In this document: positions 30,324 through 40,967 of the stretch, piece by piece
Layout of the letters: every line of letters begins with the position of its first letter
Numbering within the stretch: the first letter of the stretch is position 1
Assembly: GCA_041650935.1 (NCBI GenBank)
Contig: JBAZKH010000002.1
Span: 128,372-192,371, forward strand
From: Candidatus Omnitrophota bacterium
Lineage (GTDB): Bacteria > Omnitrophota > Gorgyraeia > 2-01-FULL-45-10
Direction: 5' to 3'
Length of the DNA: 64,000 nt
Made by a program: the position numbers and the translations under genes
Notes under the pieces: model-generated
Database searches by the model: none
Told to the model about the DNA's origin: nothing
The model's input: only the letters and a program-made list of their open reading frames with translations

Positions 30324-30717
30324 TGCGGGGTGGAGCAGTCTGGTAGCTCGTTGGGCTCAAGTATGGATACAAAGCTCAAAGCTGATATTGCAGAGTCTGC
30401 CGTTGTAATAGCGCTTCTTATAAAAGCGGCAGCGCAATATACAAAGAGCGTTGGGATTTGTTGTCCGCCAGGGGCTGTCTAACTGGAAACGGTTAGATGA
30501 AAACCTGTCAAATTCGGTGAAGCCTGGAATGGTAATACCGAGCCAAACCTATCGGGATATAGATAGGAAGGTGTAGAGACTAGACGGCAGGCATCCTAAA
30601 GAAACGCGGGATGAAGGTATAGTCCAGACTACGAACTTCGAAATTTCGAAGGCGGCGAAAGCCGTAGTAGCAAGCATAACCCAAAGGTCGTCCGTTCGAA
30701 TCGGACCCCCGCTACCA
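30324..30717 (+). tRNA. initiator tRNA-fMet (CAU) interrupted in the anticodon loop by a group I intron
   Basis: The exons reconstitute a near-E. coli tRNA-fMet with three G-C pairs in the anticodon stem and an unpaired 1:72. The tRNA has its own promoter, ttgcaa-16-tataat, at 30286-30313. Confidence 0.7.
30358..30674 (+). ncRNA. group I self-splicing intron (~317 nt) within tRNA-fMet
   Basis: It has R-like (agactagacgg) and S-like (aaggtatagtcc) core elements. The 5' exon ends in U (30357) and the intron ends in G (30674). The exact junction is approximate. Confidence 0.6.
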
Positions 30718-33568: not shown

Positions 33569-35050
33569 ATGAAAGCGCGGAAAATCAATATCGATGACGG
33601 GTTGAGAGAAATGATACCCGTCATAATTTTTTGCCTTGCGCTTGCGGTAATATTTTGTATTCCGCTTCGCGTGATGGCTTATGGCTACCTGCCGCCCGAC
33701 GATGCCATGCGCCACGCGGGGAAGGTCATTGCCGAAAAGAGCTGGGACAAGATACTTGTTTTGCGGCCTGAATTCAAAATGGACAGCCATCCCGGCTGGC
33801 ATGCCATTCTCGGGCTTGTCCGTGCCGTATCCGGATGTAACCAGGATGCGCTCGTCTTTTTTTCCGTCATAGGGCTCTTCACGCTCTTCTGCCTTATTCC
33901 GATATTTTTCCTGGAATTTCCTGAAGCATGGCTCGCGTCCCTTCTCGCCGTTATAGTCCTTGCGCCGCATCTTATCATCAGGCTATTTTTGGGCAGGCCG
34001 TTTATATTTACCATGTCCGTCATACTCATCCTGTGTTTTTTGTGGCCGCGTCTTAAAGAGAAAAAACCGCCTTATGCCATAATGGGCATACTGGCCGGGC
34101 TGATCGCATGTTCGACGTGGATACACGCGAGCTGGTACCTTTTTGTACTGCCGATAGCGTCTTTTTTCATAGCCCGGGAATGGCGCGCCGGGATCCGGCT
34201 GATGTTATGCGCCGCGGCCGGGATTATTATCGGCGCATCCTTTACGGGCCATCCGTACCTCTTCCTTAAACAGACATTCACTCACATGATGCTTGCCTTC
34301 GGGAACGTATCGGCCCAGCGCCTGCTCGTAGGAGAGTTCCAGTCTTTTGGAGGAGAGGCATTCATAGTGCTATTTATCCTCGGAATACTCGTATGGCGAA
34401 AATCGCGCGGCAAGTGGGATGCCGGAATAGTTTATAATCCGGTTTTTGTATTGGCCGTCTGCGGCTGGGTCTTCGGTTTTGTCGCCACGCGTTTCTGGAC
34501 GGATTGGGGAATGCCGGCGGCCATATTCTGGATAATGTCGGAACTGAACAATCTCTTTGCGGAAAAAGCGCAGACAGCGTCGTCTAAGAGGTTAATTATC
34601 GCATTTGCCATAACGGGCGCGCTATTTTTAGCCATTACCCCGGATACGAACAGCCGGTGGACGTACAACCTTACGACGGAGTATCTCACGCAGGATAACA
34701 AAAAACAGGCCGAGTGGTTACCTGAGCCTGGCGGTATCATATATAGCGACGACATGAGGCTATTTTACCAGACATTTTTTAAGAATCCTAAGGCGCCCTG
34801 GCGGTATATACTGGGTTTTGAGCCGGCGATGATGCCTCCGGAAGATCTTGCGGTACTTAGAAAGATACACTGGAATTTCGCGGCGGGAGAAGCGTTCAAA
34901 CCGTGGGTCGAGAAGATGCGTCCAGAGGACAGGCTCGTTATCCGCGGAGCCTATAACGCAAAACCTCCGGTTGCAGGATTAGAGTGGCACTATGCTGCGA
35001 CAGGCACATGGATCGGGCGATTGCCGAGAAATAATAGCGGGAAATATTAG
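33569..35050 (+). CDS. polytopic integral membrane protein (possible GT-C-like glycosyltransferase), function unknown
   Basis: It is 493 aa with at least 10 TM segments and no diagnostic motif. Confidence 0.5.
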   Translation: MKARKINIDDGLREMIPVIIFCLALAVIFCIPLRVMAYGYLPPDDAMRHAGKVIAEKSWDKILVLRPEFKMDSHPGWHAILGLVRAVSGCNQDALVFFSVIGLFTLFCLIPIFFLEFPEAWLASLLAVIVLAPHLIIRLFLGRPFIFTMSVILILCFLWPRLKEKKPPYAIMGILAGLIACSTWIHASWYLFVLPIASFFIAREWRAGIRLMLCAAAGIIIGASFTGHPYLFLKQTFTHMMLAFGNVSAQRLLVGEFQSFGGEAFIVLFILGILVWRKSRGKWDAGIVYNPVFVLAVCGWVFGFVATRFWTDWGMPAAIFWIMSELNNLFAEKAQTASSKRLIIAFAITGALFLAITPDTNSRWTYNLTTEYLTQDNKKQAEWLPEPGGIIYSDDMRLFYQTFFKNPKAPWRYILGFEPAMMPPEDLAVLRKIHWNFAAGEAFKPWVEKMRPEDRLVIRGAYNAKPPVAGLEWHYAATGTWIGRLPRNNSGKY

Positions 35051-35204: not shown

Positions 35205-35861
35205 ATGAAAAAAATAACAATGTTGTTAGTGGCGGGTTTAATAGTTTCCGTTTCGCTTCTTTCGGGAGAGGCTTACGCGGCGATAAAGAACATGCCTTTT
35301 AACGATGATCACCTTTCATTTGTCACAAAAAGGAAAATTACTTTTCCGGACAGTGCGCCTATTTCAGTGACAAAATACGCTAACGGCAGCATCAGGGAAA
35401 AAGTCTTTTATTACGGTTCTATTATAAGCCTTCCAAATTCTTATCAAAAGACTATCACATATATTTTTGCCCCAGGAAAGCGTGATAGGCAAGGGCAGGT
35501 AATGACGGTAGTGATACAAGGACTAACAGATTGGTCCAAGTATAATATTTCATACACTGTCAAAAAAGTTAAGGCCGTTACAATGACGGATAGCTGTGGA
35601 AAATCGAAGATATACGAATACAATACAAACGGCACTCTCAATAGCATAATTACGCGTATGGAATATAATGGGATCGAGAATATCCTGGAGGAGACAATAT
35701 CTTACTCGTATATCTACTATGCCGCAAATAGGGTTAAGACCGCAACGAAGACCGTCGTTACATATTATACCGATCCGGATGATCCGACGACTTTTGGCGA
35801 AACCATGAATACGGAGATATTAACGGAAAATTATGATAGGCGAGGGAATCTGATCATTTAG
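35205..35861 (+). CDS. secreted hypothetical protein in AT-rich region
   Basis: It has a signal peptide and is 218 aa, and local GC is clearly below the window average. Confidence 0.45.
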   Translation: MKKITMLLVAGLIVSVSLLSGEAYAAIKNMPFNDDHLSFVTKRKITFPDSAPISVTKYANGSIREKVFYYGSIISLPNSYQKTITYIFAPGKRDRQGQVMTVVIQGLTDWSKYNISYTVKKVKAVTMTDSCGKSKIYEYNTNGTLNSIITRMEYNGIENILEETISYSYIYYAANRVKTATKTVVTYYTDPDDPTTFGETMNTEILTENYDRRGNLII

Positions 35862-35967
35862 CAAGCCATCAGTCCCGAATAAAATAGTGTAGCCAAGGCG
35901 TAGAGGAGCTTCAAGGGTTCTTCTGCGCCTTTTTATTGTTAAACATAAAAAAGCAAGATGTTTAACA

Positions 35968-35996
35968 TTGACAAAGTTACTTTTGTCGTGTATACT
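35968..35996 (+). promoter_or_regulatory. near-consensus sigma70 promoter (ttgaca-17-tatact)
   Basis: The -35 lies at 35968-35973 and the -10 at 35991-35996. It drives the roughly 300-nt leader of the S8 protease gene. Confidence 0.55.
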
Positions 35997-36074
35997 CTTA
36001 TTAAGAGAAAAGAAATGTGAATATCCGAAAAGGTGCAGAGTAATCTAACTCTGCATCAAGTACCGGATGAAGTT

Positions 36075-36180
36075 CCGGTACTTGGCAAACCAACGGAAAC
36101 GTTGGGACGCAAAGCCATAGGGTCTAAGTCCGCCGAAAAACGGCGAGATAAGACAGCCTGGCGCACCGATAACGCGGAAT
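36075..36180 (+). ncRNA. c-di-GMP-I (GEMM) riboswitch aptamer
   Basis: GGCAAACC, a GAAA-capped P1 and GGGACGCAAAGCC are present, followed by GGGTCTAAG...GACAGCCTGG, matching the GEMM-I consensus. Confidence 0.65.
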
Positions 36181-36204
36181 AGATTATTTGAGTGCGCGCG
36201 GCAT

Positions 36205-36246
36205 AGACAGCCTGGCTACCGAAGATGGTAGTCGGGCTATTTTTTT
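36205..36246 (+). terminator. putative expression-platform terminator of the riboswitch
   Basis: A hairpin agcctggctacc-gaag-atggtagtcgggct is followed by atttttttgg. It re-uses the gacagcctgg segment of the aptamer. Confidence 0.45.
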
Positions 36247-36299
36247 GGGTACTTAGCTTAAAGATTTTAAAACTATTTTCAAAAATGGAGGGTGCATAC

Positions 36300-39200
36300 A
36301 TGAAGACTAAAATGATAATTACTTTCTTGCCCCTCCTGATTTTTATTTTTCTAGTTTCGATATCGAGCGCCGCGGATGACATCAGAAGCTCTAACAAAAA
36401 TCCCGGCCTTGTCCAAAAGATACGTATACCCGGTCCCGCCGCAGACGGCGCAATCAAGGGATTCCAGACACAGGTAAATATGGCACGCTCGCTCTCCTGT
36501 GCCTCCGCCGATAACGGAGGCTTCTCCGAGTTAATGGACGAATCCGCCGCGGATACCAATAAAGAGGCTTCCGCTACCCCCGCATATAAACCCGGCGAGA
36601 TTATAGTAAAGGTAAAAGAGGGTTATAGCGTCTCCGATTTAGACAGCTTAAACACCCAATATAATGCCGCCTCTCCTCAGAAAGCGTTCCCGATGTATGT
36701 GGAACCGCAGGAAAAGCTGGATACGCTTAAGAAAGAGCTTGCCGATCTTTCGGAAGGCCATAACTCCTGGTACTGGCAGCTCGATAAGAATTCCGATGAA
36801 TATAAGAAATATGAAGAGAGATTAGCGGCCGAAAAGAAAGCCCTGGCCGATCAGATAAAGAGAGAGGCCGAAACAGTCGCAAGGTTCGAGGCTTATAATG
36901 CAGAATGCGTCGATGGCGGTTCCACAACGCCCGGCCTGGAAAGGATATATCTATTAAAGCTCGATTCATCAGTAGATCCTAAACAGCTTGCGGCCATATA
37001 TGGAGCAGACCCGGCGGTAGAATATGCCCACCCTAACTATATAGCAAGAATCAATATGATACCCAACGATACTTATTATGCCTCATCGGGCGCCTGGAAA
37101 CAGCCCTTCAGAGACCTGTGGGGTGTAGTAAAGACGCAGGCCGATAAGGCGTGGGACACGACTCAGGGAGAAGGGGTTGTCGTCGCCGTATCCGATACAG
37201 GAGTAGACTATAACCATCCCGACCTTAAGGCCAATATGTGGAAAGATAAGAACGGCAGCTGTGGCTATAACTTCGTAGCTGATAACACAGATCCTATGGA
37301 CGACTTTGGCCACGGTACACACTGCGCAGGCACCATTGCCGCTGTCGGCAATAATAATATAGGTATTATCGGTATTGCCCCCAAGGCAAAGATAATGGCT
37401 GTAAAAGGGCTTGATAATACTGGCAGCGGCTATATGAGCGATCTGGCTCAAACCATCCAATACGCAGCCGACAACGGAGCTGATGTCATAAGCTGCAGCT
37501 GGGGCGGCCCGGAGGATTCTGAAGATTCCGACTGCATGCTTCTTTGCGATACCGTCCGCTATGCGACCAATATAAGAAATAGTGTTGTTGTTGCGGCCGC
37601 GGGTAATGATGATATGAACGTCGGGTCTTATAACATTTACCCGGCCAATATAAAAGAAGTCATAACAGTCGCCGCATCCACTTCGGAGGATAAAAAGGCA
37701 GAATTCTCCAATTATGGCGCAAAGATAGATGTGTCGGCACCCGGCGGCGGGGATATAGGAGGCAAACATCCCGAACGCTCCATACTCTCTCTCAAGGCGT
37801 CTTTAGCCGTACCCGATATACTGGGCGGTAAAAGCGCCCCTCTCGTTATAGGGGGTAATTACCTGCGCCAGGCCGGCACCTCCATGGCATGTCCGCACGT
37901 TTCCGGTGTCGCGGCCCTCGTCAAGAGCCTGCATCGCGACTTTACGCCTGAGCAAGTCCGCCAGGCTATCCGCGCCGGGAGCGATGATATACTTTACGCC
38001 GGTTTCGATACTTACTCAGGTTACGGAAGAGTTAACGCGTTAGGGGCAATCTCCATTTTACCCATTGCGCCGGTGATAATAGAGCCGTCTGTAAGACAGT
38101 GGGACAACGCGGATACTATCCCTATCAAATTCACGGTTAAAGGAAGCAATGTCGCAAGCTGGAAGATAGAATATAGTGATGTTAAGAGCACCTGGAGGAT
38201 CCTTACCCAAGGAACGGGCCCCGTCAATACCCCGGCGGTTTTCGATTGGGATATCCGGGCCATTCCCGACGGTCCCAGGACCATACGTCTGGTAGCTGTA
38301 AATAGCCAGGGGAAAATATTCGAAAGTAAAACGGATATCTATAATAACCATGTAACCGTTACGAAACCGCAAAACCATTTTTCCGATAATTATTACGGCC
38401 CCGGGAAAAATGTCGTAATCGAAGGGACCGTTAATCCTTATGGACTCACCTCATATACGCTGAGTATTTATAAACTCGAAGAAGACGCAAGCTTCGTACC
38501 TGGTAAATTTATTGGCTATACCTCGGGAAAATCTATTCCGGTAGAAAATACCGTGGTTAACTTAGCCAATGGCGGCAAGGCCCCGGTCATAAACGGCCGC
38601 ATTGCGGAATGGGATATAAGGAATATCCCGGCGGGATATTACAGAATCCAACTTAATGTTTTTACGCAGACATCCGGCACTAGTCCTACCACAAGGAAGG
38701 TCATGGTCGAGGTGGATCCTTCTCTTCATCCCGGCTGGCCTCTGCATATCCCGATTATGACCGATGGCGGCTGGACAAGCCCTCCCGTCAACATATTTAC
38801 TGCCGCCGATATCAATGGCGACGGCCGTGACGAGATACTGTTTAACTATAGCGGCCAGATAAACGTCATGGACTCTAACGGCGCCTCATTGCCAGGCTGG
38901 CCCAGGACATTTGCTTCCGCAGGCGATACCAGCCAGAACGGAGTAACTATAGGCGACGTGATGGGTACCGGCAAGCCGCAGATCATAGTCGGGACTTGCG
39001 GCGGGCAGATACACCTTTTTGACCGGGCGGGGAACCTTGTCAAAAAATTTCCTGAAGGCTCACGCTCCAGTTATGGCGTAAATCCGGCCGTGGCAGTATC
39101 AGATATAGACATGGACGGAAAGAATGAAATGGTAATAACCGCAGGCATGAACCTATACGTCGTAGGCCGGGACGGCGAAAAATGGTCGGAAGAACTGTCC

Positions 39201-40967
39201 GCGACTCACGAGCCCGGAGAGAACTGTCTATTCCAACCGACAGTCGCCGACCTGGACGGTAACGGAGAAAAAGAGATCATTGTGCAGTCGATGTTCTACG
39301 GTAACGAGATACATGTATTCGACTGCAAAGGAAATATAATGCATGGCTGGCCGAAAAAGCTTTGTCCGCCATCCTGGTACTGGGATGGATACAGTTCTGC
39401 CCCAATCGCCGCGGATGTAGACAAAGACGGCATACTGGAGATACTCACGGCCGCAAACAATAATAAAATCTATATCTTTAAGCCGGACGGCACTATCCTG
39501 GCCGGATGGCCCCTGCAATTCGATATAAATGACATCTTGACGTTAGGCCAAATTGTCGTAGGAGACCTGGATAAAGACGGTAATATTGAGATTGTGGTAG
39601 GGGGACCCCGTATCGTACAAGGTTGGAATAGCAAAGTAGGAAACGTTTTATACGTTTTCCGTGCCAACGGCACTGTATATAACAGCGCCTGGCCCGTTTG
39701 CCGCATGCCAAACGGCTTCGGCGTAACCTGGGTTTATGGTCTTACACCCACCTTAGCCGATATAAATAATGACGGCCTGCCGGAGATCATTATTAACGGC
39801 GTTGCCGACTTTTTCAGAGGGGAGTCCTTTAACGTTTATGATATTAACGGTCGTGAAATTAAGGAGCTTCGCAAGCCTATTTTAGGGTTTACAGCCTGGC
39901 CTGCGAATTGTCCGGTTGTAGGTGATTTTTCAGGCAGCGGTAAAAATCAGATCCTGTGGCTTGCTCGCGGCTATGTTTGTGAAGAAAGCTCCAGGAACAC
40001 AGTTTTTTATAGCTCCAGTTATTATGATATGTACCTGTGGAACACCGATACGCCTTCGACTAATCCCAGGCCCTGGCCCATGTTCCACTGCGACTCCCGG
40101 CATGCGGGGGCTATACCTGCAAATGTCGCCAGCCCGTTTAAAGCGCCTTCGGATTTGCGCGTAATAAATAACACAAGCACGATGGTGGAGTTGTCGTGGA
40201 AGAATAATTCCGCGTTGATAACGGACTTTGAGATCGAAAGGAAAGCGGCCGTTGGCGGCGCATATGCCAAGATAGACGAAGTGAAGGCTAAAAATACCTC
40301 TTACAAGGACAAGAAAGTCCCGTCAGGAGTGACATGCTTTTACAGGGTCCGCGCGGCCAAGGGCAGCGCTTACCGGTCGAAATATTCGAACGAAGTAAAT
40401 GTGGATACCGTCCTGCCCGGGCCATCCGGTCTTACCGCGACCGCCGTATCATCCATGCAGATAAATCTTGCCTGGTTAGATAACTCTAAGGATGAAAGAA
40501 AATTCTGTGTAGAGCGGAAGACCGGCGCCGGCGGTACGTATGTCGAAATACACAGGACAGCTTCCAACCACGCTAACTATAAAGACAATAGGGCCATTCC
40601 CGGCACGACATACTACTACAGGGTCCGCGCGATAAATAAAAAAGGCGCTTATTCCGAGTATTCGGATGTGGCGAGCGCTATAACTTTGCTGCCTGCGCCG
40701 TCCGGACTTACCGCGACCGCCATATCGAAGAAAGCGATAAAGCTTTACTGGACGGATAATTCCAAAGACGAGAAAAATTTCCTTATCGAAAGAAAGCTGG
40801 GCGCTAACGGCACTTATGCCCAGATCCATAAAACGGGTCCCAAAGATAACGATTATAAGGATACTCAGCTAAGCGCGGGAACGACTTACTATTACAGGGT
40901 CCGCGTAGTCAATAAAAGCGCTTATTCAGAATATTCGAACGAAGCGCACGCTGCCACAAATAGATAG
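36300..40967 (+). CDS. secreted subtilisin-like serine protease (S8) fused to FG-GAP/VCBS beta-propeller repeats and three C-terminal fibronectin type III domains
   Basis: A start at 36300 (MKTKMIITFLPLL... signal peptide, GGAGGG 6 nt upstream) is preferred over the track start 36225. The catalytic triad motifs are DTGVDYNHPDL, HGTHCAGTIAA and GTSMACPHVSG. It has multiple DxDGDG/FG-GAP repeats and three roughly 86-aa FN3 units. Confidence 0.8.
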   Translation: MKTKMIITFLPLLIFIFLVSISSAADDIRSSNKNPGLVQKIRIPGPAADGAIKGFQTQVNMARSLSCASADNGGFSELMDESAADTNKEASATPAYKPGEIIVKVKEGYSVSDLDSLNTQYNAASPQKAFPMYVEPQEKLDTLKKELADLSEGHNSWYWQLDKNSDEYKKYEERLAAEKKALADQIKREAETVARFEAYNAECVDGGSTTPGLERIYLLKLDSSVDPKQLAAIYGADPAVEYAHPNYIARINMIPNDTYYASSGAWKQPFRDLWGVVKTQADKAWDTTQGEGVVVAVSDTGVDYNHPDLKANMWKDKNGSCGYNFVADNTDPMDDFGHGTHCAGTIAAVGNNNIGIIGIAPKAKIMAVKGLDNTGSGYMSDLAQTIQYAADNGADVISCSWGGPEDSEDSDCMLLCDTVRYATNIRNSVVVAAAGNDDMNVGSYNIYPANIKEVITVAASTSEDKKAEFSNYGAKIDVSAPGGGDIGGKHPERSILSLKASLAVPDILGGKSAPLVIGGNYLRQAGTSMACPHVSGVAALVKSLHRDFTPEQVRQAIRAGSDDILYAGFDTYSGYGRVNALGAISILPIAPVIIEPSVRQWDNADTIPIKFTVKGSNVASWKIEYSDVKSTWRILTQGTGPVNTPAVFDWDIRAIPDGPRTIRLVAVNSQGKIFESKTDIYNNHVTVTKPQNHFSDNYYGPGKNVVIEGTVNPYGLTSYTLSIYKLEEDASFVPGKFIGYTSGKSIPVENTVVNLANGGKAPVINGRIAEWDIRNIPAGYYRIQLNVFTQTSGTSPTTRKVMVEVDPSLHPGWPLHIPIMTDGGWTSPPVNIFTAADINGDGRDEILFNYSGQINVMDSNGASLPGWPRTFASAGDTSQNGVTIGDVMGTGKPQIIVGTCGGQIHLFDRAGNLVKKFPEGSRSSYGVNPAVAVSDIDMDGKNEMVITAGMNLYVVGRDGEKWSEELSATHEPGENCLFQPTVADLDGNGEKEIIVQSMFYGNEIHVFDCKGNIMHGWPKKLCPPSWYWDGYSSAPIAADVDKDGILEILTAANNNKIYIFKPDGTILAGWPLQFDINDILTLGQIVVGDLDKDGNIEIVVGGPRIVQGWNSKVGNVLYVFRANGTVYNSAWPVCRMPNGFGVTWVYGLTPTLADINNDGLPEIIINGVADFFRGESFNVYDINGREIKELRKPILGFTAWPANCPVVGDFSGSGKNQILWLARGYVCEESSRNTVFYSSSYYDMYLWNTDTPSTNPRPWPMFHCDSRHAGAIPANVASPFKAPSDLRVINNTSTMVELSWKNNSALITDFEIERKAAVGGAYAKIDEVKAKNTSYKDKKVPSGVTCFYRVRAAKGSAYRSKYSNEVNVDTVLPGPSGLTATAVSSMQINLAWLDNSKDERKFCVERKTGAGGTYVEIHRTASNHANYKDNRAIPGTTYYYRVRAINKKGAYSEYSDVASAITLLPAPSGLTATAISKKAIKLYWTDNSKDEKNFLIERKLGANGTYAQIHKTGPKDNDYKDTQLSAGTTYYYRVRVVNKSAYSEYSNEAHAATNR

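Follow-up and report, generated by a model that had tools for sequence, protein, structure and literature searches.

A candidate c-di-GMP-I riboswitch with a duplicated 3' strand in the leader of a giant secreted S8 protease gene of Candidatus Omnitrophota

The window analyzed here is a 64,000-nucleotide (nt) stretch of DNA from Candidatus Omnitrophota bacterium (GCA_041650935.1, contig JBAZKH010000002.1, positions 128,372 to 192,371 of the forward strand). Within it, a leader of roughly 300 nt, measured from promoter to gene, precedes a gene whose sequence suggests a giant secreted protease/adhesin-like protein of the peptidase S8 (subtilase) type. We found that this leader carries an element that, by every criterion of sequence and structure that we could apply, is a genuine canonical cyclic di-GMP-I (c-di-GMP-I) riboswitch of the GEMM-I family, and that the 3' strand of its aptamer is present twice. 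Either copy can complete the aptamer, the second copy also forms one arm of an intrinsic terminator, and the arrangement is conserved in a second species. We consider it probable that the element is a class I c-di-GMP riboswitch exerting terminator-based transcriptional control of the S8 gene through two alternative 3' strands, the distal of which forms the ligand-bound aptamer of an ON switch.

Scanned with Rfam at gathering thresholds, the whole window gave a single riboswitch match, to RF01051 at 36074-36223, which covered the full model (1-87) with 63.2 bits against a gathering score of 35 (E value, 5.2e-10). A preliminary description of this DNA had proposed a GEMM-I leader and had let the proposal stand or fall with a significant match to RF01051; the score upholds it. 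The hallmark strings listed there are also in place, namely, GGCAAACC (36084-91), a GAAA-capped hairpin (36090-36105), GGGACGCAAAGCC (36104-16), and GGGTCTAAG (36120-28), except that the hairpin, which had been labeled P1, is actually P2 (P1a). All features described here lie on the plus strand unless stated otherwise. Covariance model (CM) alignment of 36084-36112 placed the equivalent of G20 at G36084, P2 with its GAAA tetraloop at 36085-36110 (a GNRA cap, with the loop at 36096-99), and the equivalent of A47 at A36111. P3 begins with the 5' strand AGCC-AU-AGGGUC (36113-36124) and CUAAG, the 5' half of a tetraloop receptor (36124-28; the whole segment is 36113-36128), and continues with a distal hairpin, UCCGCCG-AAAAA-CGGCGAG, and the receptor 3' half AUAA (36148-51; together 36129-36151). 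P1, which closes the three-way junction, has the 5' strand UAUC-CG (36022-27), followed by the AAAA linker of J1/2 (together 36022-36031). This strand forms 6 base pairs (bp) with the CG (36220-21) and GAUG (36224-27) of a CG-AA-GAUG segment (36220-27) that lies beyond the second copy of the 3' strand, and the CG:CG core of the helix agrees with P1 in the RF03167 consensus.

We took G20, A47, and C92 (Vc2 numbering) to be the ligand contacts, in line with the Rfam consensus and variant models. Their equivalents in the CM alignments are G36084, A36111, and either C36219 (distal 3' strand) or C36066 (proximal 3' strand). G36084, A36111, and C36219 agree with the c-di-GMP pattern and differ from those of the A20 and GGC/UAU variants, and the leader would be expected to bind c-di-GMP. 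In GEMM-Ib riboswitches, which respond to 3',3'-cyclic GMP-AMP (cGAMP), A replaces G at position 20. We rejected this subtype because position 36084 is G in the window, as it is in the orthologous leader (L002) described below. The c-di-GMP-I-GGC variant RF03167 was rejected as well, since it has G at the A47 position, whereas A36111 is A (GACGCAAAGCC); on the compact fold of L002, the RF03167 model reached 54 bits, under its gathering score of 59. Nor is the element a tandem riboswitch, as it has a single P2 and a single P3 5' strand and only the 3' strand is doubled. Its surroundings are those of a 5' leader with an expression platform: a promoter, a terminator overlapping the aptamer 3' strand, a ribosome-binding site (RBS), and an ATG.

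The window contains exactly two copies of the 12-nt P3 3' strand, AGACAGCCUGGC (AGACAGCCTGGC), one at 36151-62 and the other at 36205-16, with a spacing of 54 nt; 0.23 matches would be expected by chance with one mismatch allowed. Each copy is followed by an ACCGA tail. It is because of this direct repeat that the Rfam alignment, which takes the distal copy, leaves a 66-nt insertion in the P3 loop. When the search was restricted to 36040-36185, the proximal copy closed a compact aptamer (36074-36170) that scored 56.8 bits, which is also above the gathering score. One 5' half, consisting of P2 and the P3 5' strand, can thus be completed by either 3' strand, with both folds exceeding the family threshold.

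Each copy also has a second potential partner. Copy 1, GACAGCCUGGC, together with its tail, GCACCGAU (36152-36170), closes the compact fold and supplies the 5' arm (GCC..GCGCACCGA) of a hairpin, H3 (36156-36202; -19.2 kcal/mol), the 3' arm of which is UUG-A-GUGCGC-GC-GGC. Formation of H3 is predicted to take copy 1 off the P3 5' strand. Copy 2, GACAGCCUGGCU, is the strand aligned by Rfam and is followed by an A, the C92 equivalent C36219, and the 3' strand of P1 (36206-36227 in all). It doubles as the 5' arm, AGCCUGGCUACC, of an intrinsic terminator (36209-36246; -21.6 kcal/mol) with the 3' arm GGUAGUCGGGCU and a run of seven U residues (36240-46). The terminator hairpin (36209-36238) is G+C rich, has 12 to 13 bp, and lies about 60 nt upstream of the RBS and ATG. 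The preliminary description had noted that a terminator arm repeats the aptamer 3' strand and had called this the classic expression-platform competition. The repeat and the terminator are indeed present, but the platform is not a classic one, because classic platforms use complementarity to one aptamer strand and here two 3' strands are interchangeable. We discarded the possibility that the repeat is the remnant of a tandem aptamer, as no second P2 or P3 5' strand lies between the copies and their spacing is 54 nt rather than approximately 170 to 185 nt. Translational control was also discarded, as the leader contains no anti-RBS complement (CCUCC).

To look for the same arrangement elsewhere, we scanned genomes with the N-terminal 700 amino acids (aa) of the S8 protein and obtained 15 loci, only one of which, L002, carried the riboswitch. 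L002 is the orthologous locus of another species, with the same two upstream genes, a protein that is 67% identical, and a leader that is about 80% identical. The nearest S8 homologues, at 66 to 70% identity, came from another Omnitrophota metagenome-assembled genome (MAG). The leader of L136, a locus in a second MAG that was reached via P0001, is identical to that of L002; P0002 shows 55% identity and has approximately 250 nt of upstream sequence. The paralogues L001 and L003 lack the riboswitch, and so do L004 and L137, which are more distant homologues. For the organism of the window, an independent Logan assembly (L138) is 100% identical across 35900-36310, so the repeat is not an assembly artifact.

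The L002 leader matches GEMM-I with 62.5 bits and a 75-nt insertion. Its promoter is the same, its two copies of the 3' strand are likewise exactly 54 nt apart, and H3, a terminator, and the RBS are all present. Two segments are invariant between the leaders, namely, a 20-nt block at the proximal copy and CUACCGAAGAUGGUAG, the 16 nt that come after the distal copy. Divergence is seen in the H3 loop and in the distal P3 hairpin, which is kept as a hairpin with a wholly different sequence. Where the window has GAC in both copies, L002 has GAU in both. H3 has an invariant core, GCGCAC/GUGCGC, and a lower stem of 3 bp in the window and 7 bp in L002, where the hairpin reaches -26.4 kcal/mol. P1 keeps its 6 bp; the L002 counterpart of its 5' strand is CAUC-CG, which differs by a single C-G to U-G change. 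P2 shows one compensatory A-U to G-C change and one G-C to G-U change. The terminator is kept in L002 through pair changes of U-G to U-A and G-U to G-C, plus one bulge.

Some further observations concern these homologues. The related MAG STD1_81 has at least three paralogues of the S8/FG-GAP/fn3 gene, and only one of them (L002) has the riboswitch. In L001, the copy (1650-2110) begins some 20 nt past the stop codon of a further gene that ends in fn3 and lies at a contig start; the L001 and L002 contigs may be adjacent, which would place a two-gene operon under the switch. Paralogue L003 is at 1-420. Scanning viral contigs for the pattern of copy 1 plus H3 gave four chance matches in GC-rich coding sequence and no aptamer.

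For background we used 120 loci from a metagenome pattern scan that have GEMM-I elements sharing the P3 5' strand, none of which is a close relative of the leader. Where the 3' strand is recognizable in these elements, it usually lies 12 to 26 nt after GGGUCUAA; in about four of them (L017, L038, L064, and L114), a long P3 insertion places it 80 to 102 nt downstream. A second copy of the 3' strand was found in none of the approximately 70 other metagenome GEMM-I elements and was seen only in the window and L002; the only fuzzy matches in this search were complete triple-tandem aptamers (L019 and L111) and a complementary terminator arm (L114). Tandem GEMM-I arrays, both double and triple and with a spacing of approximately 170 to 185 nt, are numerous among the metagenome loci: L019 (approximately 1990-2330), L111, L045 (746/917/1089), L020, L042, L055, L059, L066, and L086.

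Comparison with 69 nonredundant background elements bears on which copy would form the ligand-binding aptamer. At the end of their P3 3' strand, these elements normally have a pyrimidine paired with the closing A, and after it a single spacer base (49 elements have G and 5 have A) before CC. The distal junction, GGCU-A-CC, conforms to this norm, its closing A-U pair and 1-nt spacer before CC matching 48 of the 69, and the distal tail gives P1 its 6 bp. The proximal junction, GGCG-CA-CC, is conserved in both species and has no counterpart among the 69, and its tail yields a P1 of about 2 to 3 bp (the CG:CG core). The tetraloop receptor points the other way. Its 3' half adjoins the proximal copy; in the window AUAA faces UCUAAG, and in L002 ACAA faces UCUAAA. 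Both pairings fit the background, in which NUAU or NUAA stands opposite UCUAAG and NCAN opposite UCUAAA, G-U often being swapped for A-C, while the bases before the distal copy (CAUA and AUGU) match nothing there. These comparisons conflict, the junction and P1 appearing to favor the distal copy and the receptor the proximal one. As the simplest way to reconcile them, we suggest a ligand-competent state that would keep the distal P3 hairpin and the receptor half where they are and branch H3 off, with the distal copy providing the base of P3, the C92 equivalent, and P1.

Compared with its dinucleotide shuffles, the 245-nt leader has a much more stable predicted fold (z = -8.7). We folded growing transcripts of the window and L002 leaders with ViennaRNA. 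The predicted succession was the compact fold, displacement of the proximal copy by H3, pairing of the P3 5' strand with the distal copy, and finally the terminator. For transcripts ending just before the terminator 3' arm (at 36228 in the window and 2930 in L002), the minimum free energy (MFE) was -85.9 kcal/mol in the window, where it corresponds to the extended fold, and -59.2 kcal/mol in L002. Forcing the canonical extended pairs gave -85.3 and -56.0 kcal/mol, respectively, and forcing the compact pairs gave -81.2 and -52.7 kcal/mol. Before the terminator 3' arm emerges, then, the extended fold is the MFE structure in the window and is within 3.2 kcal/mol of it in L002. With the terminator complete (36240 in the window and 2942 in L002), H3 plus terminator reached -100.3 and -74.9 kcal/mol, the compact fold plus terminator reached -97.6 and -63.8 kcal/mol, and the extended fold without the terminator reached -92.4 and -58.1 kcal/mol. 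Once the arm is out, H3 plus terminator thus beats the extended fold by 8 kcal/mol in the window and 17 kcal/mol in L002. Folding also indicated that the helix between P3 and copy 2 is weak and that a terminator toehold, CUACC, is exposed unless the junction and P1 are locked.

The preliminary description had given no direction of regulation. The energetic preference for H3 plus terminator suggests that the ligand-free default is termination, which only a ligand-stabilized aptamer could prevent. We therefore lean toward an ON switch on the strength of this modeling, because aptamer and terminator are mutually exclusive, the published layout of pilM and Bc2, and because termination is the predicted default.

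In the mechanism that we propose, the proximal copy would pair first during transcription, producing a compact, receptor-docked fold. H3 would then form and draw this copy off, and the distal copy would take over with a canonical junction, including the C92 equivalent, and a 6-bp P1. Since the distal copy is also the terminator 5' arm, the terminator would win in the absence of ligand and the gene would be off. Binding of c-di-GMP would lock the distal-strand aptamer, the terminator could not nucleate, and readthrough would turn the gene on, as in pilM and Bc2. The proximal copy would act as a co-transcriptional placeholder. A bolder formulation, which we offer tentatively and would not be surprised to see fail, is that of a "one-and-a-half aptamer," in which one 5' half is served successively by two 3' strands, the proximal one being a docked, junction-defective scaffold that H3 removes and the distal one being ligand gated. 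If this were true, the duplication would be a built-in co-transcriptional folding device, with the placeholder or decoy setting a threshold or lengthening the sensing window of an ON switch that otherwise has only about 20 nt for binding of a slowly binding ligand.

The strongest alternative, which we nevertheless regard as unlikely, is an OFF switch that works via the compact aptamer and a strand-exchange relay like those of Cd1 and yxjA. With ligand, the compact fold would block H3 invasion and leave the distal copy free to form the terminator; without ligand, H3 would strip off the proximal copy, and the freed P3 5' strand would pair with the distal copy as an antiterminator, allowing readthrough. 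This scheme finds a role for every element (copy 1, H3, copy 2, and the terminator arm). Its sensor, the compact fold, passes the gathering score with its 56.8 bits, contains the family-typical receptor half with its G-U to A-C change between the two species, and is complete about 70 nt before the terminator, which gives a long binding window as in Cd1 (PMC9262584). H3 would compete as the central helix of yxjA does (PMC9756952), and a secreted protease, PPEP-1, is a precedent for class I OFF control (PMC11477304). The scheme falters on its ligand-free state, in which the antiterminator is less stable than H3 plus terminator by the 8 (window) and 17 (L002) kcal/mol given above and the CUACC toehold is free, so that termination would be expected with or without ligand. 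Moreover, the proximal junction, with a G opposite the closing A and a 2-nt spacer, is found in 0 of the 69 other elements, the proximal tail provides a P1 of only 2 to 3 bp, and the upper part of H3 sequesters the proximal ACCGA.

We think it improbable that the element is an ordinary ON-type GEMM-I riboswitch with a long, branched P3 insertion in which the proximal copy, left behind by a local duplication, is neutral and without function. Such a reading would be in line with the long P3 insertions in about four background elements and with the Rfam alignment, which uses the distal copy and treats the rest as an insertion. It sits poorly with the conservation between the two species, where the 20-nt proximal block is 100% identical despite a leader identity of about 80% and the divergence of the neighboring hairpin and loop, where the 54-nt spacing is preserved, and where the same C/U species difference appears in both copies. 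The receptor half, too, adjoins the proximal copy.

The window leader differs from that of L002 in a 52-nt insertion in J1/2 (36033-36084), between the AAAA linker and the G20 equivalent, which consists of two perfect hairpins, H1 (36033-56; 9 bp) and H2 (36057-84; 11 bp), and is missing from L002. The closing pair of H2 uses G36084, and the A-rich bases usually found 5' of G20 are replaced. No second copy of H1/H2 was found in the window or in any fetched locus, and a mobile palindromic element was rejected as its origin on that ground. We also observed that GGTACTTGGC (36077-36086), which comprises the H2 3' arm and G20, recurs as GGTACTTAGC (36248-36257) just past the U tract of the terminator, so that the H2 5' arm, AAGUACC, could pair with either site; L002 has GGATACTT after its terminator, yet lacks H2. 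That the insertion has abolished sensing in the window genome, leaving a decayed riboswitch that acts as a constitutive attenuator or is otherwise read through, would fit its absence from the orthologue and the capture by H2 of G36084 and the nucleotides that replace the A-rich J1/2, but is very improbable, given that the two hairpins are self-contained, with their ends brought together and GG on both flanks, so that the junction strands can still meet, that the rest of the core positions are intact, as are P1, the two copies, H3, and the terminator, and that the CM score equals that of the orthologue (63.2 and 62.5 bits).

Several points weigh against the distal-strand ON model, which we continue to prefer. 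The H1/H2 insertion could have tuned or impaired the ligand pocket. The compact fold, which is above the Rfam threshold and has the family-typical receptor half, could be the true sensor, in which case the switch would be OFF. The architecture is present in only two independent sequences, and covariation support for the alternative helices is thin. Nearest-neighbor energies ignore tertiary contacts, ligand, and kinetics. The class I OFF switch of PPEP-1, the secreted protease of Clostridioides difficile (PMC11477304), means that the biology does not dictate ON control. Finally, a crude regular-expression search for GGDEF, EAL, and PilZ motifs in the window gave nothing convincing and no GGDEF, a result that is uninformative for a 64-kb piece.

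The preliminary description had also laid out the locus in the order promoter, leader, aptamer, terminator, RBS, and ATG and had identified the downstream gene, and every element that it listed was found where it had been placed. The upstream gene, which encodes 218 aa and ends at 35861, has its own intrinsic terminator at 35895-35931, a 17-bp stem followed by a T run, with 35895-35941 as the limits of the whole feature, and the leader is thus a separate transcription unit. Its sigma-70-type promoter (35968-35996) has TTGACA (35968-35973) and TATACT (35991-35996) separated by a 17-nt spacer, matching the consensus at 11 of 12 positions, and transcription would start at about 36003. The promoter scan by itself was not significant, with 2 sites found against 2.0 expected; the hexamers and their spacing are identical in L002. 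The RBS, GGAGGG (36287-92), read from the sequence and conserved in L002, is separated by 7 nt from the ATG at 36300 (36287-36302 in all).

The gene predicted to be regulated (36300-40967) was identified from its open reading frame (ORF) and Pfam matches and encodes a 1555-aa S8 subtilase with a fervidolysin-type prodomain, an FG-GAP beta-propeller region, and three C-terminal fn3 domains. Pfam membership is given by Peptidase_S8 (PF00082; 4.5e-63; residues 290-576), together with FG-GAP_3, FG-GAP, and fn3. The Asp, His, and Ser motifs of the S8 family are present in the translation as SDTGVD, HGTHCAG, and GTSMACPH, and a hydrophobic, signal-like segment at the N terminus is consistent with secretion. 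A minus-strand ORF (36056-36559; 167 aa; TTG start) that overlaps the structured leader and the start of the S8 gene was treated as spurious. Neither of the two genes upstream of the riboswitch, at 33569-35050 (493 aa) and 35205-35861 (218 aa), matches a Pfam family, and both show conserved synteny with the riboswitch and S8 gene in the two species. Among 5.8 billion sequences, only one relative of the 218-aa protein could be detected. This protein is 100% identical to one encoded on a 300-kb contig of a Candidatus Omnitrophota MAG.

Elsewhere in the window, at approximately 30325-30717 on the plus strand, lies an apparent tRNA(CAU) of the initiator/Met type whose anticodon loop is split by a group I intron of about 317 nt (Rfam RF00028 match at 30456-30650; 60.2 bits). 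The 5' exon ends in GGTAGCTCGTTGGGCTCA at about 30359 and the 3' exon, TAACCCAAAGGTCGTCCGTTCGAATCGGACCCCCGCTACCA, starts at about 30677, the splice sites being predicted. ARAGORN did not report this split tRNA.

The element can be set beside several known systems. Like Vc2 of Vibrio cholerae, the prototype of RF01051, it has a P2 with a GAAA tetraloop, a receptor-like internal loop in P3, equivalents of G20, A47, and C92, and a place in the 5' untranslated region of a gene for an extracellular protein. It departs from other GEMM-I members in its doubled 3' strand, 66-nt P3 insertion, J1/2 double hairpin of 52 nt, and Omnitrophota host. The closest parallels to the proposed mode of action are pilM of Geobacter, a GEMM-Ib riboswitch that senses cGAMP, and the c-di-GMP-I riboswitch Bc2 of Bacillus thuringiensis, both of which are transcriptional ON switches (PMC9262584, PMC4933901). 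There, as here, the aptamer 3' strand is the terminator 5' arm, so that aptamer and terminator are mutually exclusive, and Bc2 likewise controls a large surface adhesin. However, no upstream second 3' strand or removing hairpin is described for them (PMC9262584, PMC4933901), and pilM senses its ligand through A20, whereas the window element has G20.

The OFF switches Cd1 (flgB) and PPEP-1/zmpI of Clostridioides difficile (PMC9262584, PMC11477304) resemble the element in having a class I aptamer followed by a terminator that is compatible with the compact fold, and PPEP-1 is a precedent for a c-di-GMP riboswitch on a secreted protease. They differ in that their terminator faces direct competition from the ligand-free antiterminator; here, H3 and the terminator have no overlap, and nothing but the alternative aptamer fold itself could serve as an antiterminator. 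In the yxjA purine riboswitch (PMC9756952), an aptamer helix is invaded during transcription by an intermediate helix, comparable to H3, which passes the decision on to a terminator lacking direct overlap with the first aptamer fold; yxjA belongs to another aptamer class, and its central helix competes with the terminator, whereas here the 5' strand is handed to a second 3' copy. Aptamer sequence is also repeated within one leader in tandem GEMM-I riboswitches, for example Bc3-5 (PMC4759541) and the triple arrays of L019, L111, and L045, but these repeat whole aptamers at intervals of approximately 170 to 185 nt, while in the window the repeat is confined to the 3' strand (12 nt and the ACCGA tail), comes after 54 nt, and leaves the 5' half shared.

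Control of secreted and surface proteins by GEMM-I riboswitches is established for PPEP-1 and adhesins in Clostridioides difficile (PMC11477304) and for Cap in Bacillus thuringiensis (PMC4933901). In a limited search of the literature, we found no description of one aptamer 5' half shared by two 3' copies, and a limited text search turned up no paper on a riboswitch in Omnitrophota. What appears to be new here, judging from two species and thermodynamic modeling, is the conserved doubling of the 3' strand and a predicted ON switch with a placeholder strand. The element would place riboswitch-based c-di-GMP signaling in the uncultured phylum Candidatus Omnitrophota and tie this second messenger to a giant secreted protease/adhesin-like protein, a kind of surface factor known to be under c-di-GMP control in Clostridioides difficile and Bacillus. 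The link to a protease would offer a concrete handle on lifestyle switching in organisms that cannot yet be grown. Should the duplication be inert, the element is simply another instance of GEMM-I; should it be functional, it would be a small, naturally occurring case in which one strand is programmed to replace another during transcription. Such a case would help to explain how ON switches buy time when their ligand binds slowly and would be useful in designing riboswitches.

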